Below, piece by piece: positions 1,658-42,942 of a DNA stretch of 64,000 nt. The stretch is from Eubacteriales bacterium. GTDB taxonomy: Bacteria; Bacillota; Clostridia; Oscillospirales; CAG-272. The stretch covers positions 8,493-72,492 of the forward strand of contig JAZOOS010000034.1 in assembly GCA_045655185.1 (NCBI GenBank), in the 5' to 3' direction. Numbering within the stretch: position 1 is the first letter of the stretch; every line of letters starts with the position of its first letter. The notes beneath the pieces were generated by a model that saw only the letters and a list, made by a program, of their open reading frames with translations, ran no database searches and was not told the DNA's origin. The translations under genes and the position numbers were made by a program.

Positions 1658-2227
1658 TTATTTATGGTTGTAGCCCAATTCAAAGGCGGCAAGATTCAGC
1701 TCCAAGAACTTCGGGGGAACCGTTTCTCTTATCACACGGAGAAACACTTCCTTATCGATCTCGGAAGCGGCGGCCAAAACGCCGATAAGCACGACGTTTA
1801 CCGCCTTCGGGGAGCCGACCGAAAGGCTTAACGCCGTCGCGTCGATCGCCGTTACATCACAAAGAGACGAAAGCGCTTCAACGATCCCTTCGGGATATTC
1901 GGCCGCCCCCGTGATGACAGGCATCGGGGAGATAGCGTGATCGTTAAGAATGATCTTTCCGCCTTTTTTGAGGTAGGGAAGGGCGCGCAGCGCTTCCAGC
2001 CGCTCAAAGGCCAGAATGATATCGGCCTCCCCCTTATCGATGATGGGGGAATTGACCTTTTCGCCGTAGCGAACGTAGGTAACAACGCTTCCGCCCCGCT
2101 GGCTCATTCCGTGAACCTCGGAGACCTTGACGTCATACCCCTCGCTGATAACGGCGTTTCCAAGAATGCGGCTGGCAAGCAGGGTGCCCTGCCCACCGAC
2201 GCCGACGATCATAATATTCTTCGTCAT
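1658..2227 (-). CDS. iorB: indolepyruvate:ferredoxin oxidoreductase subunit beta
   Basis: MTKNIMIVGVGGQGTLLASRILG N-terminus. The ATG at 2227 lies 1 nt after the iorA TAA stop, with an AGGAGG inside the iorA 3' end. The longer track ORF start would overlap iorA. Confidence 0.85.
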   Translation of the reverse strand: MTKNIMIVGVGGQGTLLASRILGNAVISEGYDVKVSEVHGMSQRGGSVVTYVRYGEKVNSPIIDKGEADIILAFERLEALRALPYLKKGGKIILNDHAISPMPVITGAAEYPEGIVEALSSLCDVTAIDATALSLSVGSPKAVNVVLIGVLAAASEIDKEVFLRVIRETVPPKFLELNLAAFELGYNHK

Positions 2228-2228
2228 C

Positions 2229-3965: not shown

Positions 3966-3979
3966 ATTTTCGTTACTCC

Positions 3980-13186: not shown

Positions 13187-15106
13187 TTATAGGACGATGC
13201 CGTCCTCACAGTCGGCCTCGCGCCGAATTCTGGCTTCGATCGTGGCCTTGATTGCCTCGTCACCGCCGCGGTGGAAGCCGATCAGCGATACGGGAATATC
13301 CGCGCGGTCCTCTCTCGGCCGATATACGATCGAAAGAAGCTCTTTGTCGGGATGCGGATCTTCATACAGCACGCGATAAGCAAAGCCGTCGCGGTAGGCA
13401 AGCGGCAAAACGCCGTAAGCCAGCTGGCGGAATTCGATGTTGTCGATCGCGTCGGTAAAGGTAGAAGAGCCGATATGCGAGCCGTAGCGGACGGGAAGCG
13501 TTGCTTCGGTTCCGTCAGCATACGTAAGATGATAGCGGCCGAGCAGATATTTTTCATCGGTGATGAAAACGCCGTCCCAAGCGGCTTCATAAGGGATGCG
13601 GTGAGGGGTGGTATGCGTAACCGTTAAGGGGTTTTTACGGTTGTTAAGGCAAAGCCGATAGGCTTCCTCAAAGCAAAGCGCATACATAGAAGCCGCCCCT
13701 CTTGCCTCGAAATCCTCGCACCAGAAGGCGTAGGCCGAGGAGAAGAGCTTGATATACATACAGTTCTTTTGCATGGTCTCGGTATCAAACGAGCTCCAGT
13801 TGGAAACGTAGCCGCCGTTGATGCCGCGGTCGCGCCGCATATTCCACTCTTTGATCAGAAGCGGTTCAAGGTTCCCAAAGACCGTGTGCATGCCGCGCGT
13901 GAGAAAGACGTTATCGTAATCCGAGCTTCTGTGCCAGAACCAATGCAGAATGTTGAGATCGCTCGGCAACAGATCGCGGCAGGGCCACAGGGAAGGCACG
14001 TGGGCGTCGCCCTTTCCGCTTCCCGCGCCGCCGATGCGGCGATGATTATTGCCGCGGCCGTTGATCAGCTTTTCGCCCCACATATAGGTCTTGATGCCGC
14101 GTTCCGCTAAAAAGTCATGGATCTTGATGATATCGTTGGCGTAAAGGATATGGGGCTTCGTGTTTTTGCAACGGGGGCAAACGCTGACCGAGTAGGCCTC
14201 GTCATGCCCGATATGTACGGCGTGGGGCTCGAATACGTCAATAACCTCTTCGAGAATATCGAAAACATACTTATACGTATCGGGATGGTTGGGGCAATAG
14301 CTGTCGGGATGCATATCCCCCTCGCGCTCGCGGATCTCGGGGTAAGCCATTACGAGATAGTCGGCGTGCGAAAGAAGCGGACATTCGGGCATAACGGTAA
14401 GCCCACGGGAACGGCAGTAGGCGATCAAGGTGCGAACCTCGTCCTGCGTCAGAATATCCCCGCCTGCGTTATCGCAGTGGATCGAATTCTTGTGCCACGG
14501 GTAGGTCTTTGTCTGAATTTCACGCGTTCTTCCCGAATAGCGGTGCATATCGCGGCAGAATTCGGCCCAGGTCTCGTTGATCTTCGGGTGGCGGCGGTAT
14601 TCCATCGCCCCGCCGACCTCAAGGATGATCGAGTTGAATTTATAGGTCGCCAGAAAATCGACCATGCGGTAGAAGTCCTCAAATCCCGCGCGCGCCGGTA
14701 AAAAGACACGGAAGCCACGCTCGGGCGCGATCGGCAGATCGTAAATAAATCCTTCAAAAAGCTCTCCGCCCTTGGCAAGCAGCGAAAGCGTGGCGGCGGC
14801 GTAAATACAGGCCTCTTGGCTCGCCGCGAAAACACGGGTGACCTTGCCTAAAATAATGGCGTAGGCCTCTTTGTTTTTTTGATAGGCCGCCCCGATTTTT
14901 TTCCGTACCGAGGAAGAGAAGCCGATCTTCCATTCGATGCTCTCAATGGCGTCCCCGTCCCCGCCTACGGCGGAGATAAGGGCGTTTTCGATGAAATCGG
15001 CATAGGTAAGATCGGTTGCCGAAAACTCGGTCTTGGGGGTAAAAACAATTCTTTTTTCGGTGGTTTCTAAAATGCGGTATTTAAAAAACATCTTTTTTTC
15101 CTCCAA
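13187..15106 (-). CDS. glycoside hydrolase family 20-like protein (putative beta-N-acetylhexosaminidase), paralog 2
   Basis: 639 aa with no signal peptide. A block matching the GH20 pattern (RGFRVFLPAR...VDFLATYKFNSIILEVGG) and HIGHDE in place of the GH20 H-x-G-G-D-E catalytic motif. Confidence 0.55.
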   Translation of the reverse strand: MEEKKMFFKYRILETTEKRIVFTPKTEFSATDLTYADFIENALISAVGGDGDAIESIEWKIGFSSSVRKKIGAAYQKNKEAYAIILGKVTRVFAASQEACIYAAATLSLLAKGGELFEGFIYDLPIAPERGFRVFLPARAGFEDFYRMVDFLATYKFNSIILEVGGAMEYRRHPKINETWAEFCRDMHRYSGRTREIQTKTYPWHKNSIHCDNAGGDILTQDEVRTLIAYCRSRGLTVMPECPLLSHADYLVMAYPEIREREGDMHPDSYCPNHPDTYKYVFDILEEVIDVFEPHAVHIGHDEAYSVSVCPRCKNTKPHILYANDIIKIHDFLAERGIKTYMWGEKLINGRGNNHRRIGGAGSGKGDAHVPSLWPCRDLLPSDLNILHWFWHRSSDYDNVFLTRGMHTVFGNLEPLLIKEWNMRRDRGINGGYVSNWSSFDTETMQKNCMYIKLFSSAYAFWCEDFEARGAASMYALCFEEAYRLCLNNRKNPLTVTHTTPHRIPYEAAWDGVFITDEKYLLGRYHLTYADGTEATLPVRYGSHIGSSTFTDAIDNIEFRQLAYGVLPLAYRDGFAYRVLYEDPHPDKELLSIVYRPREDRADIPVSLIGFHRGGDEAIKATIEARIRREADCEDGIVL

Positions 15107-15108
15107 TG

Positions 15109-17019
15109 TTATTCTTCTTCGTAAACGCCGTCCTCAACGTCGGCTTCACGGCGAATTTTTGCGGTGATCGTGGCTTCGACCGGCTCGTCGCCGCCGCGGT
15201 GGAAGCCGATAAAGGAAACCGGGATATCCTCCCGCCCTTCGGCGGGCTTATAAACGATTGAAAGAAGCTCTTTGTCGGGATGCGGGTCTTCATACAGCAC
15301 GCGATAAGCAAAGCCGTCACGGTAGGCAAGCGGCAAAACGCCGTAAGCCAGCTGGCGGAATTCGGTGTTATCGATCGCGTCACGGAAATCCGAGTTCCCG
15401 ATGTGCGAGCCATAGCGGACGGGAAGCGTCGCCTCGGTGCCGTCCGAATAGGACAGATGATAGCGGCCAAGCAGATATTTTTCATCGGTGATGAAAACAC
15501 CGTCCCAAGCGGGCTCGTAGGGAATGGTATGCGGGGTGGTGTGCGTAATAGTCATCGGATGCTTCAGGCTGTCACGGCACAGACGGTAGGCTTCCTCGAA
15601 GCAAAGCTTATACATATCGCCCGTGTCTCTTTTCTCAAAATCGTCACACCAGAAGGCGTAGGCCGCCGCAAAGAGGTTGATATACATAAAATTCTTTTGC
15701 ATCGTTTCGCTGTCAAACGAGCTCCAGTTCGAAACGTAGCCGCCCTTGATACCTCGCTCGCGGCGGTTATTCCATTTTTTCACGAGCAACGCTTGCAGGT
15801 TACCGTAGATCACGCGCATGTTTCGATCGTGATAGACGTCGTCGTTTTTATCGGTGTAGCGCCAATACCAGTGAAGATAGGTGATATCGCGCGGCATAAT
15901 GTCGCGGCACTTATAGAGGTCGGGAATACGCTCGTTTCCGTACATATACCCCGCGCCTCCGCAACGGCGGTTGTTCTCGGCACGCGCGTTGAGAAGCTTT
16001 TCCCCCCACATATAGGTCTTGATGCCGCGCTCGGCTAAAAAGTCGCGAAGCTTGATCACGTCGTTGGTGTAGATCTTATAGGGAGAGGTTCCGCGGCAGC
16101 GGGGGCAAACGCCGACCGAGTAGGCTTCATCGTGCCCGATATGCACGGCTTCGGGTTCAAAAACGTCGATGACCTCTTCGAGAACATCAAAAACGTATGT
16201 ATAGGTATCGGGATGATTGGGGCAATAGCTGTCGGGATGCAGATCCCCCTCGCGCTCGCGGATCTCGGGGAAGGCCATCACAAGATAATCGGCGTGGCAG
16301 AAGAGCGGGCATTCGGGGATAACGTTAAGTCCTCTTGAGCGGCAATAGGCAACGAGGGCACGAACCTCTTCCTGCGTTAAGACCTCTCCTCCCGCGTTAT
16401 CGCAATGGATCGAGTTCTTCTTCCAAGGATAGGTCTGCCATTGAATTTCGCGGGCACGCCCCGAATAACGATGCACGTCGCGGCAGAATTCGATCCAGGT
16501 CTCGTTGATCTTCGGGTGACGGTGATATTCCATGCCGCCGCCGACCTCGATAATGATCGAGTTGAATTTATAGGTCGCCAAAAAGTCGACCATTTTATAA
16601 AAGGCATTAAAATCGCTTCGGGCAGGCAAAAAGACGCGAAAGCCGCGCTCGTCCCCCAGCGGGACGTCGTACAGAAAGCCCTCGCAAAGCTCGCCGTCAT
16701 GCGCAAGCAGCGAAAGCGTGGCGGCGGCGTAAATAAACGCCTTCTCGCTCGCGGCAAAAACACGGGTTACCTTACCGAGAACGATGGCGTAGCCTTCGTC
16801 ACACTTTTGATAGGCCGCCCCGATCTTCTTTTTGATCGCGGGAGAAAAGCCGAGCTTCCATTCGATGCGCTCAATGGCCTCACCGTCCCCGCCTACGGCA
16901 GAGGTAAGGGTGGCGGTGATGAAGTCGGTGTAGGTAAGCATCGCGCTTGCAAGATAGGTTTGCGGCGAAAGGATAAGCTTTTTATCGGTCGCTTGAAAAA
17001 TGCGGTAAGTAAAAAACAT
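15109..17019 (-). CDS. glycoside hydrolase family 20-like protein, paralog 1
   Basis: 636 aa, collinear with and highly similar to 13187-15106 along its full length. Only 2 nt separate the two genes. Confidence 0.55.
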   Translation of the reverse strand: MFFTYRIFQATDKKLILSPQTYLASAMLTYTDFITATLTSAVGGDGEAIERIEWKLGFSPAIKKKIGAAYQKCDEGYAIVLGKVTRVFAASEKAFIYAAATLSLLAHDGELCEGFLYDVPLGDERGFRVFLPARSDFNAFYKMVDFLATYKFNSIIIEVGGGMEYHRHPKINETWIEFCRDVHRYSGRAREIQWQTYPWKKNSIHCDNAGGEVLTQEEVRALVAYCRSRGLNVIPECPLFCHADYLVMAFPEIREREGDLHPDSYCPNHPDTYTYVFDVLEEVIDVFEPEAVHIGHDEAYSVGVCPRCRGTSPYKIYTNDVIKLRDFLAERGIKTYMWGEKLLNARAENNRRCGGAGYMYGNERIPDLYKCRDIMPRDITYLHWYWRYTDKNDDVYHDRNMRVIYGNLQALLVKKWNNRRERGIKGGYVSNWSSFDSETMQKNFMYINLFAAAYAFWCDDFEKRDTGDMYKLCFEEAYRLCRDSLKHPMTITHTTPHTIPYEPAWDGVFITDEKYLLGRYHLSYSDGTEATLPVRYGSHIGNSDFRDAIDNTEFRQLAYGVLPLAYRDGFAYRVLYEDPHPDKELLSIVYKPAEGREDIPVSFIGFHRGGDEPVEATITAKIRREADVEDGVYEEE

Positions 17020-27996: not shown

Positions 27997-29382
27997 TTAT
28001 TTTATTTTCTTCCTTTTGAAGATCCGGCTTCTGAAAAGAATGACGTTCATAACGGCAAAGAAAAGAGCGAATATGATAAGCGTCAGAACCGGCTTTGTGG
28101 GGGCGAGCGTAGCGAGAAACATCATGGGGAAGCCAAAAACAATGGCCGGGAAATTTTGATACACCATATTATCCGATGCGGGCGTTTTAAAGTCGCTATC
28201 GATCTCTCGAAGAAGAATAATACCCGTGCTTGCCGTTCCCGTCAGCATCCCGTACATGGTAAGGAACTGCTCCTCCGCATAATCGGGGAAGAGGGTCTTG
28301 GCGATCAGGCGATTGTAAACGTATGTGATGATGGCGCCAACCACCCCAAGAATCAGAATAACGCCCCAATAGTTTTCAAGAATATCAAGACGGATGGCCG
28401 CAATTCCCGCAACGACCATAATATCAAAGAAGAAATTGCTGGTGCGCGTCATAAGGAAATTGTTTGTGTACTTCTTTTGGATGATCCCTTTCTTGCGAAG
28501 GAAATTCAAAAGAACCTTGATCAACGTGGCCGTCAAAACACCGATTAAGAAATTGAAGCCGTAAATCACCGATTTCATTCCGGGCAAAAGCGATCCGAGC
28601 GCAAACATCACAAGGTATGCAGCCACGTAAGCGACAACGATCAAGGCGATCTGAACGGTCATTTTGTCAATGCTTTCCTGCATGGGAATTTCATTGGCAG
28701 AATCAATTTGATCGGTGTGAAGGCTTCCGTCCGAACGGTTGGATAGGACAAGCTTTCCGCGTCTTTTCATAATGTTCAAATGAATGACACCGACGATGCT
28801 TGCGGATAAGAATCCAAGGGCGGCAATCGTAAGACCAAAGCTTTTTCCACCCACAAATCCGTACTCGTTTTCATAGATCGTGCCGTAGTTAAGCGCCTGC
28901 CCGGTGCCTTGCCCGTAGCCAAACGGCAAAAGAACGCCGGCGGCGGTGAAAAAGTCTTGTATAACCAAGGCGGTGATCATCGTTATCAAAAGGCCGACTA
29001 TGCCTTGTATCAAATAAGTGGAAACCGTTGTTACGCCCGTGTTAAAGATTTCCTTTGTCCGTTGTTTGGTCAGCTTTCCGCCCGTCGTTTTGAAAGCGGA
29101 AGCAATAAAGCCAAGCGCCAACGTATGATACGTAATAATTTCAAGATTTCCCATACCGTTTCCGCCAAAAACGGCCGTCTCAAACATCACATCACCGGTA
29201 ATGGATTTATATACGTCAGAAATGATCAAGAGGATCACACCGCCAAGCACCGAGGTCGGTATCAAAGAATTTTGCAAAAGCGGAATGCTCTTTTTTAAGA
29301 CGTTCCCGACCAAGAGGCTGCCCAGCAAAACGCCAAAGAGCAGGATCGATCCCCATACACTATAATCCCAAAAATTTTCCAT
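27997..29382 (-). CDS. GltS-like sodium/glutamate symporter family protein
   Basis: 461-aa polytopic protein whose layout resembles GltS, including GYGQGTGQA. A GGAGGGG RBS is present. Confidence 0.5.
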   Translation of the reverse strand: MENFWDYSVWGSILLFGVLLGSLLVGNVLKKSIPLLQNSLIPTSVLGGVILLIISDVYKSITGDVMFETAVFGGNGMGNLEIITYHTLALGFIASAFKTTGGKLTKQRTKEIFNTGVTTVSTYLIQGIVGLLITMITALVIQDFFTAAGVLLPFGYGQGTGQALNYGTIYENEYGFVGGKSFGLTIAALGFLSASIVGVIHLNIMKRRGKLVLSNRSDGSLHTDQIDSANEIPMQESIDKMTVQIALIVVAYVAAYLVMFALGSLLPGMKSVIYGFNFLIGVLTATLIKVLLNFLRKKGIIQKKYTNNFLMTRTSNFFFDIMVVAGIAAIRLDILENYWGVILILGVVGAIITYVYNRLIAKTLFPDYAEEQFLTMYGMLTGTASTGIILLREIDSDFKTPASDNMVYQNFPAIVFGFPMMFLATLAPTKPVLTLIIFALFFAVMNVILFRSRIFKRKKIK

Positions 29383-30580
29383 TTTCCCCTCCGTTTATTA
29401 TGTTGCGATAGCGGAAAAAGAAGTTTACGTATTTAAGCGCGTTAAATTTCTTTTCACCCTTTATTTGATATATCGAGCCACCGAAATACAGATTGAGCTT
29501 GTTCCGTCCGAGAACCGTCGCCGCCGTTAATTCATCAAAGGTGAATTTATACGTCGTATTACCGATCGCGCGGATCTCGATCCGATCCTTGTATAAAAGC
29601 AATTCAGCCTTCTTGTGAAGGACCTTTTTCTTTTTATAAACGATAACCTCGGATATTTTGGCTACATCCCGATAGATCGGCTCTTCGCCAAGCTGTAAAA
29701 GGTCCAGCCCGTTTACAAAATCCTTTTGATAGTCATACCAGTCGGCTACAAAGCGATAGGGAAAATCAAATCCCACACCGCGCAGCTCCTTCGTCGGTAA
29801 ATATTCGATCCTTCTCTTGCATTTTTTGCATTCAAGGATCGCATGATGGCTTTCAAAAGAAGAAAGGCCGCAATAAGGACACACGTAGATGGCTCTTTCC
29901 AAATGCTCCGCCGGGCGCTTATGATGAAATTCGCCGGTGATGGCGGCTTCATTGACGTATAGCTCACGGCTTATGATCCCAAGCAGCTCCTCGTCCGAAA
30001 GCGCTTGAAATTTTTCGGGCTCAAGCACGCTTGAAACATATCCTCTCATATGGCCTTTTCGTACCGCATCACTCCATCTCGGTTGGACGCCATAACCCCC
30101 CTCAATACGGTAAAGCGCAATAGGCAGATTCAATTTTCTTGCAAGCGGCACAATGGACGGATTGATATATTCGGTCCTTCCGCTGTAAGTGCGGTTTCCC
30201 TCGGGGGCGATGGCGATCGTACCGCCTTCTTTCGCCACCTTGATGCAATTCAAGACCGCTTTTACATCGGTCGTTTGCTTCCGGATGGGGATCGGCGCAA
30301 CCAAAAACCGAATCAGCGACGATAGGATCCCGTTTGAAAAAATATCTTCGGTCGCAAGATAGTAAACGGCGCCCTTGAAGGACATACCGACAAAGAATTG
30401 ATCAAACGGTGTCTGGTGGTTCATTAAGATCAGATACGGGCCCTTCTTTTGCTCCTTGAATTTCTCTACCTTGATACCGTATCTGTATCTGGCATACGGG
30501 GTCAACACAAAGGAGAGAAGATTCCTTATAAACCGATGCCGTTTCCTTATCCATTTTTTGCTTTTTCGCTTTTCTTTCAT
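29360..30580 (-). CDS. lysophospholipid (PlsC-type) acyltransferase with a C-terminal extension containing a zinc-ribbon-like motif
   Basis: HxxxxD motif NHQTPFD and an APEGNRT block. The C-terminal half carries CPYCG...CKKCKRR. Confidence 0.7.
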   Translation of the reverse strand: MKEKRKSKKWIRKRHRFIRNLLSFVLTPYARYRYGIKVEKFKEQKKGPYLILMNHQTPFDQFFVGMSFKGAVYYLATEDIFSNGILSSLIRFLVAPIPIRKQTTDVKAVLNCIKVAKEGGTIAIAPEGNRTYSGRTEYINPSIVPLARKLNLPIALYRIEGGYGVQPRWSDAVRKGHMRGYVSSVLEPEKFQALSDEELLGIISRELYVNEAAITGEFHHKRPAEHLERAIYVCPYCGLSSFESHHAILECKKCKRRIEYLPTKELRGVGFDFPYRFVADWYDYQKDFVNGLDLLQLGEEPIYRDVAKISEVIVYKKKKVLHKKAELLLYKDRIEIRAIGNTTYKFTFDELTAATVLGRNKLNLYFGGSIYQIKGEKKFNALKYVNFFFRYRNIINGGENGKFLGL

Positions 30581-30610
30581 AACCTATCTTTTTTCGTCCG
30601 CAAAGTGGGT

Positions 30611-32314
30611 TTAATCAATACTCATATCGAGCTTAAAGCGCATGATCTTACGCAGGGTATTTTTGGGGAAATCCTCACCGCGCACTTTAAGCACGCCTAT
30701 TTTTTTGTAGGGAACTGCGGTTTTATTGTATTCGTTCACGAAGCCTTGCAGATAGGCTTTTACATCGGTGATTTCGTTTTTCTCGATGTATTCCTTATCG
30801 GGAAAGATTTCGGCAACGATCGCGTTATGCTCCATGCCGCGGCGGCTTTTTCCCTCGTATACGATGATATCCTGCACACCGGGGACCGAGATCAGCTCGT
30901 TTTCAATTTCCTCGGGGTAAACGTTCTTCCCGTTAGAGAGAATGATAAGGTTTTTCTTTCGGCCGGTGATATAAAGGATTTTATCCTTGGTGAGCTTGCC
31001 GTAATCACCGGTCTTGAAATAGCCGTTCTCATCTATGGCTTCGGCCGTTGCTTCCTCGTTTTTGTAGTACCCAAGCATAACGTTGGGGCCTTTTACGTAG
31101 ATTTCCCCCTCGCCGTCCTCGTTGGCGTCAACGATCTTGACGTCGTCAATATCCACCACCGCGCCGACGCTTCCTTTTACAACGTTGCGGCTTCTGTTAA
31201 AGGAAATGATCGGGGAGCACTCGGTGATCCCGTACCCGTTAAGCACGGAAATTCCGATCCCCTCAAAGAACGAAATGATATCTTGATTGATGGGCGCGCC
31301 GCCCGTTACGATCATTTTGATCTCACCGCCAAAAGCGTTTCGTATCTGCGCGAAGAGCTTTTTCCTCATATCAATAAGGCCGAAGCTTACTTTTTTGGCG
31401 GCGTTGCTGATTTTCAGCATATCATGCACAAGCTTATCCTTGCCTTGGTTTTTAAGGTTGGCTTGGATTCTGCGGTAGAAGGTTTCAAGATACAGGGGAA
31501 CCAGGACAAGATGCCCCGGCTTTTCGGATTTTAATTCCTTTTGTATGTACTTGATCCCGTCGGATATATATACCTCGGTTCCGATCATTACGTGGGCAAT
31601 CAGCATAGTCGATGAGCCGTACGTATGGTGCGGGGGCAAAACCGAAACCGTATTTTCCGCAAAATCGACGTACGGCGTAACGACTTCCATATCGCGGATA
31701 AGCGAATCGGTGCAGAGCATAACGCCCTTTCCCTTGCCGGTGGTTCCCGAGGTATACACGAGAAGCGAAAGCTGTCTTGGATCAAACTGTACGTCAAAAT
31801 AGGGCCGTTTGTCCTCCGAAAATTTAATACGGCCCGCCGCGATCATGGCTTGCAGGCTTGCATCCCCTTGGGCGCCAAGATAGACAACGGGTGCTTCAAG
31901 CGCGCACAGCGCGGCAATCTCCCGCCCCTTTTCCGAAAGATCTCCATCGCAGAAGAGGTAATCCATATCCGCGTTTTTGGCGGTATCGGCAAGCTCGGCC
32001 GCCCCCCAATCTTTATCCAGGGGAACCAGAACCGCCCCGATGAGAAGCGTGGCGTAATAGGCTGTGATAAAATCATAGGACATTTTTCCCACAACGACGA
32101 TATGCTTCCCCTTCATACCGCGAGAAAGCATCTCGGTTGCAAGCGCCCGAACGTCATCCCGAAACTCAATATAGCTTATGCTTATTTTTTCCTCATCGTG
32201 GGGGTTTTGCCTATAAGAAAAGGCAATGCGGTTGCCGTATACGCGCGCGGCATATTCAACGATATGGCGTATGCTCTTAAATTCTCTTTTAGGGTGTATC
32301 TGTTCTTTTTTCAT
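30611..32314 (-). CDS. AMP-dependent long-chain acyl-CoA/ACP synthetase
   Basis: 567 aa with motifs YTSGTTGKGKGVML, YGITE and TGD. Confidence 0.85.
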   Translation of the reverse strand: MKKEQIHPKREFKSIRHIVEYAARVYGNRIAFSYRQNPHDEEKISISYIEFRDDVRALATEMLSRGMKGKHIVVVGKMSYDFITAYYATLLIGAVLVPLDKDWGAAELADTAKNADMDYLFCDGDLSEKGREIAALCALEAPVVYLGAQGDASLQAMIAAGRIKFSEDKRPYFDVQFDPRQLSLLVYTSGTTGKGKGVMLCTDSLIRDMEVVTPYVDFAENTVSVLPPHHTYGSSTMLIAHVMIGTEVYISDGIKYIQKELKSEKPGHLVLVPLYLETFYRRIQANLKNQGKDKLVHDMLKISNAAKKVSFGLIDMRKKLFAQIRNAFGGEIKMIVTGGAPINQDIISFFEGIGISVLNGYGITECSPIISFNRSRNVVKGSVGAVVDIDDVKIVDANEDGEGEIYVKGPNVMLGYYKNEEATAEAIDENGYFKTGDYGKLTKDKILYITGRKKNLIILSNGKNVYPEEIENELISVPGVQDIIVYEGKSRRGMEHNAIVAEIFPDKEYIEKNEITDVKAYLQGFVNEYNKTAVPYKKIGVLKVRGEDFPKNTLRKIMRFKLDMSID

Positions 32315-32593: not shown

Positions 32594-33424
32594 TCAAGCC
32601 AACATATCCATAAGATCGCCGAGGGCGGTTTCGAACTTGGCGCCGTACCAATGATCCTCATCCCCTTGGGTGTTGATGATGCATTTGACGGTATAATCGG
32701 CGGCGATCTTGGCCGCTTCTAAAATATCCTTGCCCCTCATCAGTGCGCCCGTGAAAGCAGAGGCGTAAATATCGCCCGTGCCGTGGCAACCCCCCGAAAC
32801 CTTGTCATGCTCGTAATAGCGGATATTCCCGTTCTCGTATACGATAACGCCGGTCTTTTCAGGGGCGTATCCAACCCCCGTCAGAACGACGGTCTTGGCG
32901 CCAAGCTTCGAAAGCGCGTCAAGAAGCCCCTTAACGTAGCTTTCATCATAGGTCTCACGGTATTCAACGTTGGCTAAGAAGCAGGCCTCGGTGATATTGG
33001 GGATCAAAATATCCGCCGACGCGCAAAGGCCGCGCATGGCCGCCACGTATTCGTCGTTAAAGATGGAATAGAGCTTGCCGTTATCCGCCATAGCGGGATC
33101 CACGATGCGAACGCAGTCGTCAGTTCCCATCGTATTCAAAATATCCTTTACGTATCCAACCTGCTTTACGCTTCCGAGATAGCCGGTATAGATCGCCTTG
33201 AACTTGATATTTTCCTTTTTCCAATGCGCCGCGATATCGGGCATATCGTCGGTCAGATCCCGAAAGGTGAAGCCGCTAAATCCCGCCGTGTGCGTCGAAA
33301 GCACGGCAGACGGAAGGATACAGGTCTCCATGCCGCAAGCGGAAAGGATGGGGAGCGCAACCGTCAGCGAGCATTGCCCCACGCACGAAATATCCTGTAT
33401 GGTCAGAATTTTTTTGTAAGACAT
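32594..33424 (-). CDS. pdxK: pyridoxal/pyridoxamine kinase
   Basis: 276-aa ribokinase-fold PdxK/PdxY-like protein, with ILTIQDISCVGQCSLTVALPILSACG and GTGDIYASAF. Confidence 0.8.
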   Translation of the reverse strand: MSYKKILTIQDISCVGQCSLTVALPILSACGMETCILPSAVLSTHTAGFSGFTFRDLTDDMPDIAAHWKKENIKFKAIYTGYLGSVKQVGYVKDILNTMGTDDCVRIVDPAMADNGKLYSIFNDEYVAAMRGLCASADILIPNITEACFLANVEYRETYDESYVKGLLDALSKLGAKTVVLTGVGYAPEKTGVIVYENGNIRYYEHDKVSGGCHGTGDIYASAFTGALMRGKDILEAAKIAADYTVKCIINTQGDEDHWYGAKFETALGDLMDMLA

Positions 33425-33516
33425 TACGATAATCTCCTTGCAAATTTCATGAAACCATTATATAATACTTCTGATGATACGAAAATGACCAGAATGGGAG
33501 AATTATATATAACCAG

Positions 33517-34602
33517 ATGAGATATAAAGTGGAAAAAAACGGTCGCCCGGCGTATTTGCAGATCTACGATCAGATCAAAGAGGATATCGTGAACGGAACG
33601 TTGGAGTATAAAACCAAGCTTCCTTCCAAAAGATTTTTGGCAGACGAAACCAAAACCAGCACCGTGACGGTGGAGCACGCCTACGCCTTGCTTTGTGACG
33701 AAGGGTATATCGAGGCGCGCGAGAGAAGCGGCTTTTTCGTTCTCTTTCGCCAGTCGGACGGCTTTTCCCCGGCAAGCGCCCTTCACGTCGCCCCAGCCCC
33801 GCCGAGGATGCCCCGAAACGCCTATCCCGATTTTCCGTTTTCGGTGCTCAGTAAGACGATGCGGAATATTCTTACGCTGTACGGCGAGGGGATCTTATCC
33901 CGTTCTCCGGGGGAAGGGTGCCCCGAGCTTCGGTCTGCCCTCGTACGGTATCTGGCAAGAAACAGAGGGATTCATATCTGCGCCGATCAGATCGTGGTTG
34001 GCGCGGGCGCGGAATATCTGTACAGCCTGATCATTGAAATGCTTGGGCGCGGGCGTATTTACGGCATTGAATCGCCGTCTTACGAGAAGATCGAGCAGGT
34101 GTATCGCGCATCGGACGCTCGCGTTGAGCATCTTTCCCTTTCGCACGAAGGGATCGACAGCGCCGCCCTCTTAAAAACAGAAGCAACCGTTCTGCACACA
34201 ACGCCGTACCGAAGCTTCCCAAGCGGGGTCACCGCTTCGGCCACCAAGCGTCACGAATACGTTCGGTGGGCAGACGGGGGCGATCGCTTTATTATTGAAG
34301 ACGATTTTGAATCCGAGTTTTCGGTTTCCACCAAGCCCGAGGATACGCTGTTTTCCTTGACCCGATCGGATAACGTTATCTATTTGAACACCTTTTCCAA
34401 GACCGTCTCCCCCTCGCTTCGTATCGGATATATGGTTCTTCCCAAAAGGCTTTCTTCGGTATTCAAGGAGAAGCTCGGCTTTTATTCCTGCACCGTCCCG
34501 ACCTACGAGCAGCTGGTTATCGCGTCACTCTTGGATAACGGCGATTTTGAGCGGCATATCAACCGCGTCAGACGGAATATGCGAAGGGCGCTTCAAAAAT
34601 AA
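33517..34602 (+). CDS. MocR/PdxR-type regulator (GntR HTH fused to a PLP aminotransferase-like domain), short form
   Basis: N-terminal GntR wHTH and an aminotransferase-like core with NTFSKTVSPSLRIGY (putative PLP lysine). Divergent from pdxK. Confidence 0.8.
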   Translation: MRYKVEKNGRPAYLQIYDQIKEDIVNGTLEYKTKLPSKRFLADETKTSTVTVEHAYALLCDEGYIEARERSGFFVLFRQSDGFSPASALHVAPAPPRMPRNAYPDFPFSVLSKTMRNILTLYGEGILSRSPGEGCPELRSALVRYLARNRGIHICADQIVVGAGAEYLYSLIIEMLGRGRIYGIESPSYEKIEQVYRASDARVEHLSLSHEGIDSAALLKTEATVLHTTPYRSFPSGVTASATKRHEYVRWADGGDRFIIEDDFESEFSVSTKPEDTLFSLTRSDNVIYLNTFSKTVSPSLRIGYMVLPKRLSSVFKEKLGFYSCTVPTYEQLVIASLLDNGDFERHINRVRRNMRRALQK

Positions 34603-37313: not shown

Positions 37314-37342
37314 TTGACAAACCGACCTTCGTATGCTAAAAT
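37314..37342 (+). promoter_or_regulatory. sigma-A promoter of the T-box operon
   Basis: TTGACA, 17-nt spacer, TAAAAT. Confidence 0.6.
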
Positions 37343-37349: not shown

Positions 37350-37617
37350 TCACAAACGCAATGATGCGGAATAGTATGCAAAAATCCCCGCTTATAGAGA
37401 AATGCCGGTCGGTGCAAGGCATAGGGGGGCTCTTGCTGAACTCACCGCGGAGCGGCTGTTATGAAAAAAGTAGTGACAGACGGGTACTCCCGTAATAGAG
37501 TTACGGTGTGTCGGCATCGAAAGGGCATCCCTTTTGGGATGAAGAAGAGTGGTACCGCGGAAACAACGTTTTGCGTTTTCGTCTCTTTGCTGGAAGAAGA
37601 GATGAAAACGTTTTTTT
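37350..37617 (+). promoter_or_regulatory. T-box riboswitch leader, leucine specifier (CUC)
   Basis: Stem I carries AAUGAUG (K-turn), an AGUA S-turn, the AGAGA box (37396-37400) and a GGUGCAA distal loop. The specifier-loop 3' side reads GAA-CUC-A, with the codon at 37441-37443. The T-box sequence GUGGUACCGCGG lies at 37549-37560. The terminator is CGTTTTCGTCTCTT / AAGAGATGAAAACG followed by T7 (37574-37617). Confidence 0.8.
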
Positions 37618-37644
37618 GTTTATAGCTTGAAAGGGGTTAAAAAT

Positions 37645-39030
37645 ATGAAAAAGATCCAGATTGCAGACGTTACGCTGAAAAAGCTTTCGGGGGACCGTGC
37701 GGTTTCGCTCTTGTTCCGCGAAAAATCCGCCATCGCGAATTACGCGGATAAGCTGGGGGCTGACGTTTTTGAGCTTCCGCCCGTAAAAAACGCGCGGGAG
37801 GATGCGATCGTCTATAAGACCATCGCCAAAAATCTGCAAAACGCGATCCTTTCTGTTCCCGTCGGGTTCAGCGCCGCGGGGGTCGAGGAGGCTTTTGCTT
37901 GCATTAAGGAAGCTAAGCACCCCCGCCTTCGGATCGAGCTTCCCGTATCGACCATCCAAATGGAATATACCTATCACGTCAAGCAAGCCAAAATGCTTGA
38001 AGCTATCGCTTCGCTCACCAAGGCCGCCAAGGCTCTTTGCGCCGACGTTGAATTCACTGCGCTTGACGCTACGCGCGCCGATCTTGATTTTCTGATCGCC
38101 GCCGTCAAGGAGGCCGAAGCAAACGGCGCGACCTCTGTAACCGTATGCGACGATGCGGGCACCGCGACGCCCGAGGAGATCGCTTCGTTGGTCGGGGCGG
38201 TGAAGGGGGCTGTCTCTTTGCCCCTTTCGGTACAGGTATCCAACCGTATCCATATGGCCGTGGCTTCGGCGCTTTCCGCCATTGCGGCGGGGGCTGACGG
38301 CCTTAAATGCGCCATGGCGGGGAAGGATGCCCTGCTTTCGGGCGAGCTTTCGGATGCGATGAACGTTTGCGGCGCCGCGATCGGCGCCATGATCGGCCTT
38401 GATAACACCAAGATCCACGCCGGTATTGCGGATATGCTTTCGGGTATCCACCACGAACAAGCCAAGGAAGAAGCCGTAAACGAAGCAAACAGCCTTCTGC
38501 TGGATGCCGACGCCACGCTCTCGCAGGTGGCCGAGGCTGCCGCCCTTATGGGGTACGAGCTTTCGGATTCGGATATCGGAAACGTGTTGAAGGCGCTTCG
38601 TGGGGTATGCGAAAAGAAGGGCACGGTCGGCGCCAAGGAATTCGAGGCTCTTATCGCAAGCTCGGCTATGCAAGCGCCCTCTACCTATCATTTTGAAAGC
38701 TACACCACGACGAGCAGTAACCTCTCCAGCGCGATGACCCGGATCAGCCTCAGCTGCAACGGCGAAAGCATGTGCGGCGTCAGCGCGGGGGACGGCCCGA
38801 TCGATTCGGCCTTCCGCGCGATCGAGCAATGCGTCGGTCATCACTATGAGCTTGACGATTATCAGGTACAGTCGGTCACCGAGGGGAAGGAAGCCTTGGG
38901 CTCGGCCCTCGTCCGTCTTCGCTATAACGGTAAGCTTTATTCGGGAAACGGTACCTCCACCGATATCGTGGCGGCCAGTATCCGTGCGTATATCAACGCA
39001 TTGAATAAGATCGTGTTCGAGGAGGGCTGA
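37645..39030 (+). CDS. LeuA (2-isopropylmalate synthase)-like protein lacking catalytic residues but retaining the LeuA C-terminal regulatory domain
   Basis: Collinear with short-form LeuA. However, TLRDGEQ is replaced by TLKKLSGD, HCHNDLG by QVSNRIH, and SAEDATR by TALDATR. The C-terminus keeps GDGPIDSAF...GNGTSTDIVAASIRAYINALNKI. The ATG at 37645 follows GAAAGGGG; the track ORF starts at a TTG at 37627. Confidence 0.75.
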   Translation: MKKIQIADVTLKKLSGDRAVSLLFREKSAIANYADKLGADVFELPPVKNAREDAIVYKTIAKNLQNAILSVPVGFSAAGVEEAFACIKEAKHPRLRIELPVSTIQMEYTYHVKQAKMLEAIASLTKAAKALCADVEFTALDATRADLDFLIAAVKEAEANGATSVTVCDDAGTATPEEIASLVGAVKGAVSLPLSVQVSNRIHMAVASALSAIAAGADGLKCAMAGKDALLSGELSDAMNVCGAAIGAMIGLDNTKIHAGIADMLSGIHHEQAKEEAVNEANSLLLDADATLSQVAEAAALMGYELSDSDIGNVLKALRGVCEKKGTVGAKEFEALIASSAMQAPSTYHFESYTTTSSNLSSAMTRISLSCNGESMCGVSAGDGPIDSAFRAIEQCVGHHYELDDYQVQSVTEGKEALGSALVRLRYNGKLYSGNGTSTDIVAASIRAYINALNKIVFEEG

Positions 39031-39031: not shown

Positions 39032-41494
39032 ATGAAGATCGTATTTTCGACGAAGAACGTAAGCCGATCTTCCTTTCTCGATACCTGCCGCTTAGCTTAT
39101 GAATACGGCTTTTCGGGCTTCGAAATTTACGATGCCGTAAAGGAAAGAGCCGCCCATAACGATAGCGTTTTACGGCGTGACCGCACGGCCGATGCCCGCC
39201 GCAAGCTCGTCAACCGCAATCTTGCGGTAGCGGCGCTTCGTATGCCCATAGCGTTGGAAAACGAGGCGTGCGAAGGAGACCTCGTGGCGAAATACGTCGA
39301 TATGGCGGCTTCCTCGGGTACGCCTTATGTGATCGTTCATCTTGGAAAGAGCGCTTCCTTTGATCTGTTGGATCAAAAGCTTACGGCGGCGATCAAGCGC
39401 GCCGAGGCCTGTGACGTTGGTATCCTTTTCGAAACGGTAGGCGCCCTTTCGCATACCGAAAGGGTCATTGAGATCATCAATCATTTCGCTTCCGCCGCGA
39501 TCGGCGCCGCTTGGAACGTGCGCGCCACCTATTTTTCGGCAGGGGAGACCGCCGAGGCAACCATCAAGACGCTCGGCGCTTATATCAAATACGTGCGCCT
39601 TGGCGATATGAAGGACGGGAAAACCGTTCTGATCGGGGAAGGGGATCTTCCGGTAGAGAAGCTTCTCAACGCGCTTTCTTCCTTGAATTACGAGGGCTAT
39701 ATCTGCGCCGCGTGGAACGAGGAGATCGAGGACGCCGATATCGTTTTGACTCATTTTTCCAACTATCTTTCTTCCTTGAAGCGTGAGAAAAAGAGCTTTG
39801 AGCACGGGTATTACAACCGCCAAAAAACCGGCACCTTCGTTTGGAAGAAGTATGACGTGATCGAGGCCACCTTCTCGGACGTTTTGGATACGATGGCAAA
39901 AACCTATCCCGACCAGTACGCCTTTAAGTATCCGACCCTCGATTATACGAGGACCTACGCGCAGTTCCGCCGTGATGTAGACGAATGCGCCGCCGCGCTT
40001 ATTTCGCTGGGCGTAAAGGCCGGGGACCACGTAGCCGTGTGGGCGACCAACGTGCCCGAATGGTTTATCACCTTCTGGGCCACCACCAAGATCGGCGCGG
40101 TTTTGGTTACCGTTAATACCGCTTATAAGATCCACGAGATCGAGTATCTTTTGAAGCAATCGGATACCCATACGCTGGTTCTTATCGAGTATTGCAAGGA
40201 CATCAATTATAAAGAAATTATCGAAGAGCTGTGCCCCGAGCTGAAGAGCCTTGAGCCCGGTAAGCCGCTTTATTCGAAGAATCTGCCCTTTTTGCGTAAC
40301 GTTGTTACCGTCGGCTTTTCGATGGACGGCTGTTTGACGTACGAAGAAATGCTCTCGCGCGCTTCGCTCGTTCCGCGTGAGGAGGTGCGGCGTCGTGCTT
40401 CCTTGGTTCGCCCCGACGACGTATGCAATATGCAGTATACCTCGGGTACCACGGGCTTCCCGAAGGGGGTCATGCTGACCCACCGCAACATCGTCAACAA
40501 CGGCAAGACCATCGGTGACCGTATGGATCTTTCCACCGCCGACCGTATGATGATCCAGGTTCCGATGTTCCATTGCTTCGGCATGGTGCTTTCGATGACC
40601 TCGATGATGACCCACGGCGGCACGCTTTGCCCCATTCCGTACTTTTCCCCGAAATCCTCGCTGGCTTGCGTAAACGATGAAAGGATCACCTGCTTCAACG
40701 GGGTTCCCACCATGTTTATCGCGATGTTCGGCCACGCCGATTTTCAGAAGACTGATTTTTCGCATATGCGTACCGGCATTATGGCGGGGGCAAACTGCCC
40801 GCCCGATCTGATGCGCCGCGCCGCCGAGGAGATGAATATGCGTGAGATCATTTCGGTATACGGGCAGACCGAGGCCTCCCCCGGCTGTACGATGGGCGAG
40901 GTCAACGAGGATCTTGACCACCGTGTTGAAACGGTTGGCAGCGCCTTCCCCGGGGTGGAATGTAAGATCATCGACCCCGAAACCGGAAACGAGCTTCCCG
41001 ACGGAGAAAGCGGCGAGTTCGTAGCCCGCGGCTTCAACATCATGAAGGGCTATTATAAGATGCCCGAGGCGACCGCCCAAGCGATCGACGCCGACGGCTG
41101 GCTTCATTCGGGGGATATCTGCATGCGTACGCCCGATGGCTATTATAAGGTCACAGGGCGCCTTAAAGACATGATCATTCGCGGTGGAGAGAACCTTTAC
41201 CCCCGTGAGATCGAGGAGTTTTACCTCACCAATCCCAAGGTGCGCGACGTACAGGTCGTCGGTGTGCCCGACGAGCGCTACGGCGAAGAGTGCTGTGCTT
41301 GGATCATTCTTCATAAGGGTGAAGTGGCCGATGAAGCCGAAATGCGTGATTTCGGAAATGCCTCGATCGCACGGCATAAGGTACCGAAATACTTTATGTT
41401 CGTTGAGGAGTTTCCGATGAATGCGGCCGGTAAGATCTTGAAATACAAGATGCGTGAGATCGCGGCTGAAAAGCTGGGGCTTAAAACCAAATAA
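39032..41494 (+). CDS. fusion protein: xylose-isomerase-like TIM barrel (N-terminal, about 250 aa) plus AMP-forming acyl-CoA ligase (C-terminal, about 550 aa)
   Basis: The N-terminal region has a sugar-phosphate isomerase/epimerase-like pattern. The C-terminal region has YTSGTTGFPKGVMLTH, YGQTE, SGD and a GKILK tail. The start lies 1 nt after the upstream stop. Confidence 0.8.
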   Translation: MKIVFSTKNVSRSSFLDTCRLAYEYGFSGFEIYDAVKERAAHNDSVLRRDRTADARRKLVNRNLAVAALRMPIALENEACEGDLVAKYVDMAASSGTPYVIVHLGKSASFDLLDQKLTAAIKRAEACDVGILFETVGALSHTERVIEIINHFASAAIGAAWNVRATYFSAGETAEATIKTLGAYIKYVRLGDMKDGKTVLIGEGDLPVEKLLNALSSLNYEGYICAAWNEEIEDADIVLTHFSNYLSSLKREKKSFEHGYYNRQKTGTFVWKKYDVIEATFSDVLDTMAKTYPDQYAFKYPTLDYTRTYAQFRRDVDECAAALISLGVKAGDHVAVWATNVPEWFITFWATTKIGAVLVTVNTAYKIHEIEYLLKQSDTHTLVLIEYCKDINYKEIIEELCPELKSLEPGKPLYSKNLPFLRNVVTVGFSMDGCLTYEEMLSRASLVPREEVRRRASLVRPDDVCNMQYTSGTTGFPKGVMLTHRNIVNNGKTIGDRMDLSTADRMMIQVPMFHCFGMVLSMTSMMTHGGTLCPIPYFSPKSSLACVNDERITCFNGVPTMFIAMFGHADFQKTDFSHMRTGIMAGANCPPDLMRRAAEEMNMREIISVYGQTEASPGCTMGEVNEDLDHRVETVGSAFPGVECKIIDPETGNELPDGESGEFVARGFNIMKGYYKMPEATAQAIDADGWLHSGDICMRTPDGYYKVTGRLKDMIIRGGENLYPREIEEFYLTNPKVRDVQVVGVPDERYGEECCAWIILHKGEVADEAEMRDFGNASIARHKVPKYFMFVEEFPMNAAGKILKYKMREIAAEKLGLKTK

Positions 41495-41501
41495 AAAAAT
41501 A

Positions 41502-41528
41502 AAAAAGGCTGACCGCGTCAGCCTTTTT
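41502..41528. terminator. bidirectional terminator between the T-box operon and pyk
   Basis: AAAAAGGCTGAC-CGC-GTCAGCCTTTTT. Confidence 0.65.
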
Positions 41529-41529
41529 C

Positions 41530-42942
41530 TTATATTTCGTCGATTTTGATCAAATTGGTATTTCCAGAATGCCCCGTGGTATCCCCGCCCGTAATAACGA
41601 TGCGGTCACGCTTCCCAAGCGAAAGCTCCTTAGAGGCGATCTTTTTTGCGGTATAGAAGAGTACGTCGGTCGAGGTAAATTCCTCGCACATAGCGGGAAT
41701 AACGCCCCAAGAAAGGGCAAGCTTACGCCAGGTGGTCTCGTTCGTCGTCAGCCCTATGATCGGTACGGGCGAGCGGAAGCGGGATACCATACGGGCGGTC
41801 ATTCCCGACAGCGAGCAGGCAACGATCGCCTTGGCTTCGATGTCGATTGCCATACCGCAGGTCGAATGCGAGATCGCGTCGGTCATATTCCGAATGGTGA
41901 AATCGGCGTCGTGGAAACGCTTTTTGTAGTTGATGGTACACTCGGTCGTTTCGGCAATCTTGGCCATCGTTTCGACGGCTTGTATGGGATATTTTCCGGC
42001 TGCCGTTTCTCCCGAAAGCATGATGGCACTCGTTCCGTCGTAAACCGCGTTGGCGATATCCGAAATTTCGGCTCTCGTCGGGCGGGAGTTTGAGATCATT
42101 GATTCCAGCATCTCGGTCGCGGTGATCACGCGCTTGCCAAGCATACGGCATTTGGTTATCAGCTTTTTCTGGATAGCGGGGAGGTGTTCAAAGGGAATTT
42201 CGACCCCCATATCGCCGCGGGCTACCATAATGCCGTCACAGCATTGGCAAATGTCTTCGATGTTATCAACGCCCGATTGGTTTTCGATCTTGGCGATCAG
42301 CTCGATCCCCTCGGCCCCGATCTCCTTCATATAATTTCGTACGTCTAAAAGATCCTGCTTACAGGAAACGAAGGAGCAAGCAATATAATCAATGCCGTTA
42401 TCAACCCCGAATTTGATATCCTTTTTATCCTGCTCGGAAAGATAAGGCTGCTTCATCACCTTGCCGGGAAAGCTCATGCTCTTGCGATCCGAAAGCACGC
42501 CCCCGCAAAGAACGAGGCACTCGATATCGGGTCCGTTGATCCTTTCGACGCGAAAGGAAAGAAGTCCGTTGTTAAGGAGAATGGTATCGCCGACCGAAAG
42601 CTCCTCGGGCAGCTTGGCGTAGCTGACCGAAACGCACGCGCGGTTACCTACGACCTCGTTAGCCGTAAAGGTAAAGCGGTCACCGTCCGAAAGCAGGATT
42701 TTGCCCCCCTCAAAGGTTTTGATGCGGTATTCGGGACCTTTGGTGTCCAGCATAATAGCAATAGGAAGCCCCAGTTCCCCCCGTACCTCTTTTACGAGGT
42801 CAATGCGCCTTTGATGATCGGCATGGGTGTTATGGGAAAAGTTAAGCCTTGCCACGTTCATGCCTGCTTGGCAAAGTCCCTTGATGATCTCCTTGGTTTC
42901 GCTTGCCGGGCCAAGCGTACATACGATCTTAGTTTTTCGCAT
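41530..42942 (-). CDS. pyk: pyruvate kinase
   Basis: MRKTKIVCTLGPA, NFSHN and MVARGDMGVE motifs. Confidence 0.95.
   Translation of the reverse strand: MRKTKIVCTLGPASETKEIIKGLCQAGMNVARLNFSHNTHADHQRRIDLVKEVRGELGLPIAIMLDTKGPEYRIKTFEGGKILLSDGDRFTFTANEVVGNRACVSVSYAKLPEELSVGDTILLNNGLLSFRVERINGPDIECLVLCGGVLSDRKSMSFPGKVMKQPYLSEQDKKDIKFGVDNGIDYIACSFVSCKQDLLDVRNYMKEIGAEGIELIAKIENQSGVDNIEDICQCCDGIMVARGDMGVEIPFEHLPAIQKKLITKCRMLGKRVITATEMLESMISNSRPTRAEISDIANAVYDGTSAIMLSGETAAGKYPIQAVETMAKIAETTECTINYKKRFHDADFTIRNMTDAISHSTCGMAIDIEAKAIVACSLSGMTARMVSRFRSPVPIIGLTTNETTWRKLALSWGVIPAMCEEFTSTDVLFYTAKKIASKELSLGKRDRIVITGGDTTGHSGNTNLIKIDEI

Follow-up and report, generated by a model that had tools for sequence, protein, structure and literature searches.

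A putative LeuA pseudoenzyme paired with an acyl-CoA ligase behind a leucine T-box: a possible leucine-sensing subunit for isovalerate salvage in Clostridia

HisZ, a catalytically dead paralog of HisRS, serves as the histidine-sensing regulatory subunit of the ATP-phosphoribosyltransferase HisG, and the small subunits IlvN/IlvH regulate acetohydroxyacid synthase through ACT domains that sense branched-chain amino acids (BCAA). In 2-isopropylmalate synthase (IPMS, LeuA), leucine is bound and inhibition transmitted by parts of the enzyme itself, and feedback-resistant mutations fall in its GDGPIDA loop. Methylthioalkylmalate synthase (MAM, 6e1j), a paralog derived from IPMS by modular loss, kept catalysis and lost the regulatory domain. 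Here we describe a stretch of 64,000 nucleotides (nt) from Eubacteriales bacterium (GenBank assembly GCA_045655185.1, contig JAZOOS010000034.1, positions 8,493 to 72,492), referred to below in its full length as the window, in which a LeuA-like gene lies between a leucine-specific T-box leader and a gene for an AMP-forming acyl-CoA ligase. We propose that this operon is a leucine-starvation-induced module for the salvage of isovalerate to leucine, in which the LeuA-like protein, deprived of its catalytic apparatus, would act as the leucine-sensing regulatory subunit of the ligase; we give this reading a probability of roughly 0.55.

Set beside these systems, the LeuA-like protein appears as the mirror image of MAM: both derive from IPMS by modular loss, but here catalysis was lost and the regulatory domain was kept. 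With short-form LeuA (N. meningitidis 3rmj, L. monocytogenes 3ewb) and CimA it shares the domain order of barrel, subdomain II linker and LeuA_dimer and, by our proposal, it would be linked, like LeuA, with the supply of leucine and with the first committed step on a way to it; unlike these enzymes, it has neither the metal ligands (Asp, His, His) nor the catalytic Arg and Glu, and no GERAGNA loop or subdomain I; it shows an inverted conservation gradient and is always paired with a ligase. By analogy, HisZ for HisG can be taken as the closest conceptual precedent. As with HisZ, we find a paralog with catalytic loss that is under purifying selection and in obligate genomic association with an enzyme, and the likeness would extend to an ancestral amino-acid-binding capacity that serves a first committed enzyme; fold and partner are unrelated, however, and the complex and its allosteric effect are predictions here. 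As with IlvN/IlvH, a separate co-transcribed polypeptide would provide BCAA feedback on a committed-step enzyme, but IlvN/IlvH have ACT folds that are not enzyme-derived, and the LeuA regulatory domain is a different fold.

Two further systems resemble the operon in its ligase and in its leader. MbcS of S. aureus is described, in the available text on it, as an AMP-forming ligase that activates environmental branched short-chain acids for membrane fatty-acid synthesis (PMC10026030). The ligase of the window would be similar to it as an AMP-forming branched-acid ligase, but differs in its TIM domain, its LeuA-like partner and its T-box, none of which that text reports for MbcS (PMC10026030). 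Known leucine T-box regulons include leuS and the ilv-leu operon (Wels et al. 2008, PMC2494555); the window operon has the same canonical leader and CUC specifier in front of genes that would raise charged tRNA-Leu, but what is regulated is a dead LeuA with a ligase, and not a synthetase, a de novo pathway or a transporter.

The open reading frame (ORF) of the LeuA-like protein lies on the + strand and ends with a stop at 39030, with TTG 37627 as the earliest start in the ORF listing. The N-termini of homologues (MKxI...) place the start at ATG 37645, which gives a product of 461 amino acids (aa) and agrees with the coordinates 37645-39030 assigned in an earlier note on this DNA, made from the sequence alone. 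In Pfam, residues 3-226 match HMGL-like (PF00682, 101 bits) and residues 330-456 match LeuA_dimer (PF08502, 108 bits, model positions 4-130 of 131). The coding sequence was divided into a catalytically dead DRE-TIM (HMGL-like) barrel (residues 1-250, 37645..38394, +; delimited by Pfam, Foldseek, alignments and the ratio of nonsynonymous to synonymous substitution rates, dN/dS), a long linker helix with subdomain II (residues 251-330, 38395..38634, +; alignment to canonical LeuA and predicted local distance difference test, pLDDT) and a LeuA_dimer allosteric domain (residues 331-461 and stop, 38635..39030, +; Pfam, conservation and dN/dS). Against the NCBIfam equivalogs for LeuA, CimA and NifV, the protein falls under every cutoff, the best being NF002086 with 237 bits versus 532.

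An AlphaFold2 (AF2) model built from a 61-sequence alignment has a mean pLDDT of 91.6, with values of 96-99 in the barrel and a fall to 53-71 around residues 260-290. In Foldseek, the barrel of this model superposes on 3rmj and 3ewb with template modelling (TM) scores of 0.82-0.91 and a root-mean-square deviation of 1.7-1.8 A, and the model also superposes on full-length M. tuberculosis LeuA, the leucine-bound form included. The top match is MAM (6e1j); 3hps with ketoisocaproate is also among the matches. As judged from sequence and predicted fold, the LeuA-like protein is thus a folded, selected LeuA paralog that is predicted to be unable to carry out DRE-TIM metallolyase chemistry.

The loss of the catalytic apparatus was followed in residue-level alignments obtained with phmmer against the PDB (3ewb, 3rmj), with MAFFT together with canonical LeuAs, and from the family alignment. 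The earlier note had reported that all recognisable catalytic and metal-binding residues are replaced, and the alignments to solved and canonical LeuAs bear this out site by site: TLRDGEQ reads TLKKLSG, with Lys12 at the position of the catalytic Arg and Lys13 at that of the metal-binding Asp; HCH(N/D)D reads QVSNR, both His residues having given way to Gln197 and Ser199; and the Glu of EDATR is Leu140. The ligands are not conserved in shifted positions, since three independent alignments put non-ligand residues at every site. The collinearity with short-form LeuA that had also been described holds overall; it is interrupted by two deletions that had gone unremarked, one of 4 residues that removes the GERAGNA loop (alignment to canonical LeuA) and one of ~30 residues that removes accessory subdomain I (HESGIHQDG...TYE). 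The linker region correspondingly counts ~43 residues where canonical LeuA has ~72. In real IPMS, both catalysis and allostery depend on residues of subdomain I (MtuIPMS His379, Tyr410; PMC9860122). As had been noted, conservation is good in the C-terminal domain, with 35-42% identity to canonical LeuA versus 25-30% for the barrel, and GDGPIDSAF, STDI and AYINALNKI are all present in it.

These losses are common to more than 100 clusters at 50% identity, a recurrence that chance does not come near to explaining. We examined 105 full-length (440-490 aa) representatives of such clusters among the matches listed, down to ~30% identity, and none has all three metal ligands together. The metal-ligand Asp is retained in 9 of the 105, the first His in 2 and the second His in 1, and the beta-7 motif is without any His in 102; the catalytic Glu and Arg persist in 24 and 33 representatives, respectively. 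Shortening of the GERAGNA loop (4 residues) and of subdomain I (~30) is common across the family. A wide variety of residues occupies the lost ligand sites (E, Q, K, N, D, S and others at the Asp; E, Q, S, C, R and others at the first His), so that no new conserved catalytic set has taken over. With metal ligands, Arg, Glu and subdomain I gone family-wide and the fold intact, pseudoenzyme status for IPMS-type chemistry, as put forward in the earlier note, is strongly supported.

The family is large. A word-indexed search with the LeuA-like protein gave more than 5000 matches, the best 120 of which are 73-91% identical, ~462 aa long and from Ruminococcaceae- and Oscillospiraceae-type metagenome-assembled genomes (MAGs); they are unnamed or labelled 'hypothetical protein' or '2-isopropylmalate synthase' (the latter in P0041 and P0074, for example). 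In an exhaustive HMMER search of the 50%-identity representatives, 262 matches were obtained at E<1e-30, and true LeuAs (~500 aa) turn up only below roughly 200 bits. In five matches (P0237, P0246, P0248, P0249 and P0252), LeuA_dimer stands behind fragments of MFS_1, Response_reg, TGT, MBOAT and 7TMR-HDED; we rejected these fusions as real architectures, since short metagenome assemblies most likely gave rise to them, through contig chimerism or run-ons in gene calling.

Conservation along the protein runs in the reverse of an enzyme's gradient. Averaged over pairs of family members, identity amounts to 33% across the barrel and 26% across the linker; it reaches 58% in the regulatory domain, which is the best conserved part and whose near-invariant residues include G382, G384, P385, D387, A388, S438, T439 and D440. 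Compared with the 91%-identical ortholog in the related locus L002 (L-numbers denote related genome loci), dN/dS is ~0.15 in the barrel and ~0.025 in the regulatory domain, which shows that both parts are under purifying selection and the sensor domain about six times more strongly. Some barrel motifs held in common with LeuA are still conserved, namely D8, PVSxxQMEY, DATR and CDxAG.

The partner gene encodes a fusion protein. Its residues 1-262 (39032..39817, +) form a xylose-isomerase-like TIM domain (AP_endonuc_2, Pfam 54.9 bits), and residues 263-820 with the stop (39818..41494, +) an AMP-forming acyl-CoA ligase of the ANL type (Pfam AMP-binding, 322.6 bits, and AMP-binding_C). The adenylation motifs of the ligase are intact, with YTSGTTGFPKG, YGQTE and a GK near the C-terminus, and in NCBIfam it matches PRK12583 with 675 bits. 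Its substrate is most likely isovalerate. In the TIM domain of the window, E-N-R-A stands in place of the canonical metal quartet E-D-H-E. Across 161 TIM domains the quartet is EDHE in 72, ENRA in 25, KDHE in 24 and ENHV in 10, with others in the remainder, and its loss is apparently lineage-specific and repeated. Since the clade of the window has ENRA and E-D-H-E is intact in only 72 of 161, the domain looks as if it was kept for structure and not for chemistry. In a profile comparison with the PDB the nearest structures are Art22, MJ1311 and AsbF, a single-sequence phmmer search gives only a marginal match, and no specific function for the domain emerged from the profile comparison. The operon can thus be read as one module with two degenerating TIM barrels.

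The pairing of the LeuA-like gene with the ligase is obligate. In 80 species-level genome loci, the TIM-ligase gene begins a few bases 3' of the LeuA-like stop wherever the downstream sequence suffices. All 80 are MAGs or uncultured-isolate bins, and the named sources are mostly herbivore gut or rumen; the labels include Acutalibacteraceae, Oscillospiraceae, Christensenellaceae, Lachnospiraceae and Ruminococcus, with further bins labelled Eggerthellaceae, Coriobacteriaceae and Synergistaceae. Identity to the window across the loci is 67-93% in the ligase domain, 27-75% in the TIM domain and 39-75% in the LeuA-like protein. The same was seen in the reverse direction: in a metagenome search with the TIM domain, a LeuA-like gene was found 5' in 77 of the 77 loci with upstream sequence (within 200 nt in 74 and within 900 nt in 3), and the ligase domain was fused to the TIM domain in 65 of the 65 loci with downstream sequence.

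The operon is preceded by a complete leucine T-box. A sigma-70-type promoter (37314..37342, +; TTGACA, 17 nt, TG-TAAAAT, with 11 of 12 matches in a consensus scan and an extended -10 TG), whose function is predicted from this match, sits 10 nt 5' of a full-length T-box leader (RF00230, 37352..37589, +), which Rfam cmscan finds with 125.5 bits versus a gathering score of 93 (E=2e-27, model 1-219 of 219). Rfam alignment and sequence give CUC (Leu) as the specifier codon, in the stem I specifier loop GAA-CUC-A (37441..37443, +), and the Rfam alignment places the conserved T-box sequence AGUGGUACCGCG, the antiterminator side that pairs with the tRNA acceptor end, at 37548..37559 (+). A terminator scan finds a leader hairpin of 16 pairs followed by a T-run (37573..37621, +), which competes with the antiterminator. 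We conclude from this anatomy that the operon is probably under tRNA-Leu-dependent antitermination when leucine is scarce. The gap between the LeuA-like stop and the ligase gene is 1 nt, and the last LeuA-like codons, GAG GAG GGC TGA, hold the Shine-Dalgarno sequence of the next gene (ATG 39032), which indicates translational coupling. A bidirectional terminator (41501..41529, terminator scan on both strands) closes both the two-gene operon and a convergent pyruvate kinase gene (41530-42942, -, from the window annotation).

The leader is widespread among the relatives. In 63 of 83 loci, the T-box core motif is found ~100 nt 5' of the LeuA-like gene. The specifier was read in 62 related leaders with a helix-anchored, structure-aware pattern that was checked against Rfam alignments, an AGTA S-turn pattern having failed on most divergent leaders; it is CUC in 52 and CUG in 2, and the leaders that fail the pattern have CUC or CUG when read by eye. 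Rfam confirms the T-box in L005, L036 and L045, with CUC in the alignments shown, and the leader of L056 was also found. Loci that lack the T-box motif have other leaders of conserved appearance: in L021, L040 and L080, ~160 nt 5' of the LeuA-like gene, ...AGCG(C/T)(T/C)G(T/G)TTGTCGTG... is followed by a hairpin and a T-run, while the leader of L034 and L038 has CTTATAGTGCA... after a promoter; neither has an Rfam match.

Related loci also supply a pathway context. Many of them carry, beside the leucine operon, one or two extra ligases of the architecture HTH_3-Cupin_2-AMP-binding (~755-800 aa; at L084 2739-7758 and L085 4009-9258), each with its own T-box. Their leaders have the Ile specifier AUC in 18 loci or more and a Val specifier, GUA or GUC, in 7; Rfam alignments show AUC in L005 and L056 and GUA in L005, the last at 86.7 bits, below the gathering score (E=2e-19). 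Such T-boxes lie at 3898-4132 and 971-1219 (-) in L005 and at 10014-10254 (+) in L056. By analogy, the HTH-cupin module may be the counterpart of the LeuA-like sensor, or a BirA-like DNA-binding autoregulator.

In L084 and L085, a CbiA-like P-loop gene comes after two of these ligases, and next to it are genes for a four-subunit 2-oxoacid:ferredoxin oxidoreductase, with ferredoxin-like delta, POR_N alpha and TPP beta subunits; POR gamma was seen in L085 only, as was a class IV (branched-chain) aminotransferase (Aminotran_4), L084 ending at the TPP beta gene. The CbiA-like, oxidoreductase and aminotransferase genes occupy 1-3992 (-) in L085 and 9-2722 (-) in L084, and the ligase-oxidoreductase block is divergent from the leucine T-box operon with the LeuA-like gene and its ligase. 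By tblastn, oxidoreductase subunits and/or the aminotransferase were found within 6 kb in ~20 loci; in L034, L038, L062, L075, L021, L069 and L077 they are contiguous with the LeuA-like and ligase genes and on the same strand. This cluster of CbiA-like, oxidoreductase, aminotransferase and ligase genes is a candidate for the complete gene set for reductive carboxylation of isoacids to BCAA. Since AMP-forming ligases drive the conversion of acid to acyl-CoA and T-boxes act at amino-acid scarcity, the cluster reads as an anabolic route. Rumen microbes are documented to make leucine by carboxylating isovalerate, and the isoacid requirement of rumen bacteria is a long-standing biochemical observation (cited in PMC7356843).

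Taking into consideration the T-box and the obligate ligase partner, both overlooked by the earlier note, what would have been a free-standing sensor becomes a probable regulatory subunit. The suggestion in that note of a protein retained for ligand sensing is consistent with the regulatory domain being the most conserved part and with the position of the gene behind a Leu-specific T-box. In the mechanism that we propose, uncharged tRNA-Leu would stabilise the antiterminator, so that transcription continues past the leader and the two proteins are produced in a fixed ratio. Isovalerate would be converted by the ligase to isovaleryl-CoA and thereby committed to the leucine route; the 2-oxoacid:ferredoxin oxidoreductase would then carboxylate isovaleryl-CoA reductively to 2-oxoisocaproate, and the branched-chain aminotransferase would turn this into leucine. 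Once leucine is restored, the dead LeuA would bind it and throttle the ligase post-translationally, possibly by docking on the degenerate TIM domain of the ligase itself. Subdomain II, the regulatory domain and the GDGPIDA loop, through which LeuA binds leucine and passes on the inhibition, are all retained. The salvage route would thereby have two-tier control, transcriptional and allosteric, like the de novo route. We advance more tentatively, as something we would not yet bet on, a wider and so far unannotated scheme for gut and rumen Clostridia, in which three ligases under Leu, Ile and Val T-boxes would feed one oxidoreductase and one aminotransferase, and in which the leucine branch would have the dead LeuA as an allosteric subunit docked on the TIM domain, a new class of enzyme-derived sensor.

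Several observations weigh against the proposed salvage module, some of them in favour of the alternatives that follow. The best model for the ligase, PRK12583, says nothing on specificity. About a quarter of the related loci have no T-box motif 5' of the LeuA-like gene; some of these lie within longer same-strand runs (L077 after the oxidoreductase gamma gene, L046 after an amidohydrolase gene), and no other known leader family was found by Rfam in eight T-box-less loci. Neither oxidoreductase nor aminotransferase was found beside the window operon, where only the leucine operon is present; all that tblastn over the window yielded was a different, IOR-type oxidoreductase, accompanied by a ligase of its own (1658-5614, -). 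In the barrel, D8, S102, D141, R144 and D169 are conserved at the former active-site face, and a ligand-binding role of the barrel is possible.

This last point belongs to the alternative that survives best, which we nevertheless consider unlikely: the dead LeuA would be a structural, scaffolding or substrate-handling subunit of the ligase and not a leucine switch, its C-terminal domain serving mainly for dimerisation. It might stabilise the enzyme, bind isovaleryl-CoA or 2-oxoisocaproate and channel it to the oxidoreductase, or confer specificity. Strict pairing and translational coupling would be expected of such a subunit as well, the conserved residues just named are substrate-face motifs shared with LeuA, LeuA barrels bind keto acids and CoA esters (as 3hps with ketoisocaproate, among the fold matches, illustrates), and LeuA_dimer in Pfam is also the dimerisation domain of LeuA. 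However, GDGPIDA and STDI are the most invariant motifs, which is more than dimerisation alone needs, among the folded parts it is the barrel that evolves fastest (33% identity), and nothing is left of the polar residues that, by way of the metal, keep the keto acid in place.

Still less likely, in our view, is a different or additional chemistry, in which the ligase would act on another leucine precursor or a related acid, and the LeuA-like barrel or the TIM domain would have been neofunctionalised as an enzyme that needs no metal or has other ligands and that acts together with Amidohydro_2 or MaoC proteins. The full E-D-H-E in 72 of 161 TIM domains (45%) points this way, as the domain may be catalytic in many lineages and do more than simple activation; the TIM ligands are dispensable, on the other hand, in more than half of the members, the window included. 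A gene for an Amidohydro_2 protein (PF04909, ~273 aa, N-terminus ...IDSHCHIFP) is present in 31 loci, directly 3' of the ligase, or 5' of the LeuA-like gene in L046 (5201-5986; other examples are L085 13959-14780, +, and L003 9879-10625), and a MaoC-like dehydratase adjoins the operon in L001 (8061-9961) and L083 (13882-14286). Simple isovalerate activation leaves both unexplained, but the window does without them, as do many loci. The leucine ligase is only ~25% identical to the Ile/Val ligases and belongs to a different ANL subfamily, so that their shared substrate logic is an assumption of our model; the symmetry of Leu, Ile and Val T-boxes with one oxidoreductase and one aminotransferase nevertheless fits simple isoacid activation, and at the lost ligand sites of the LeuA-like barrel there is no conserved new polar set.

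A true 2-isopropylmalate or citramalate synthase with shifted or misaligned ligands is very improbable: some pipelines do give homologues the IPMS name, and the LeuA fold and overall collinearity agree with it, but the three alignments, the His-free beta-7 in 102 of 105 representatives, the deletion of catalytic subdomain I and scores below every LeuA, CimA and NifV equivalog cutoff all argue against it. A decaying pseudogene or annotation artefact, which the loss of all catalytic residues might suggest, is refuted by conservation, with ORFs intact in more than 150 independent loci, the dN/dS values given above, a confident fold, and a conserved leader, ribosome-binding site and operon partner.

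A literature search found no description of an IPMS pseudoenzyme or of T-box-controlled isoacid ligases, in a limited search by which absence is unproven, and none of genes or regulation assigned to the isovalerate-to-leucine route in Clostridia. The components (LeuA regulatory domain, T-boxes, ANL ligases and pseudoenzyme regulators) are known, and it is their combination that appears undescribed. The family, thousands of proteins, is commonly unannotated or misannotated as IPMS, and metabolic reconstructions that take this name at face value will attribute de novo leucine synthesis to gut and rumen Clostridia in error. The Leu/Ile/Val T-box ligase cluster provides testable gene candidates and a regulatory logic for isoacid carboxylation. 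If our proposal is correct, the LeuA pseudoenzyme would be a new case of allosteric-domain recycling, from the committed step of de novo synthesis to that of salvage, by way of gene duplication and catalytic death. An isolated and highly conserved putative leucine-binding module is also a possible biosensor part.

Elsewhere in the window, the IOR-type operon encodes a ligase with an AMP-binding domain (3980-5614, -), a POR_N/TPP_C/Fer4 fusion that resembles IorA (2229-3965, -) and a protein similar to POR gamma (1658-2350, -). By analogy, it follows the same ligase and oxidoreductase logic, possibly with arylacetates as precursors of aromatic amino acids; no T-box was found at this operon by Rfam. 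Among the relatives, an ACT/Lactamase_B protein also adjoins the operon in L001, which has no T-box directly 5' of its LeuA-like gene. Compared with the 91%-identical L002 (14322-18429), the window is without an HTH-cupin ligase, an ACT protein and a PaaK-like ligase downstream, and has the convergent pyruvate kinase (41530-42942) in their place. The flanks of the two loci are syntenic, with genes for Mn catalase, LPG_synthase_C, TetR and cation efflux. Also syntenic in L002 is a divergent pair formed by a GntR-aminotransferase (MocR-type) regulator (33517-34602, +) and a PF08543 kinase (Phos_pyr_kin, phosphomethylpyrimidine/pyridoxal kinase-type; 32594-33424, -), which we take to be a typical vitamin B6 salvage regulatory unit (32594-34602). 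The window further contains two tandem GH20 (hexosaminidase-family) genes (13187-17019, -) and, at 29360-32314 (-), a gene for an AMP-binding protein (30611-32314) with an acyltransferase gene (29360-30580) behind it, all of them ordinary gut-Clostridia content.

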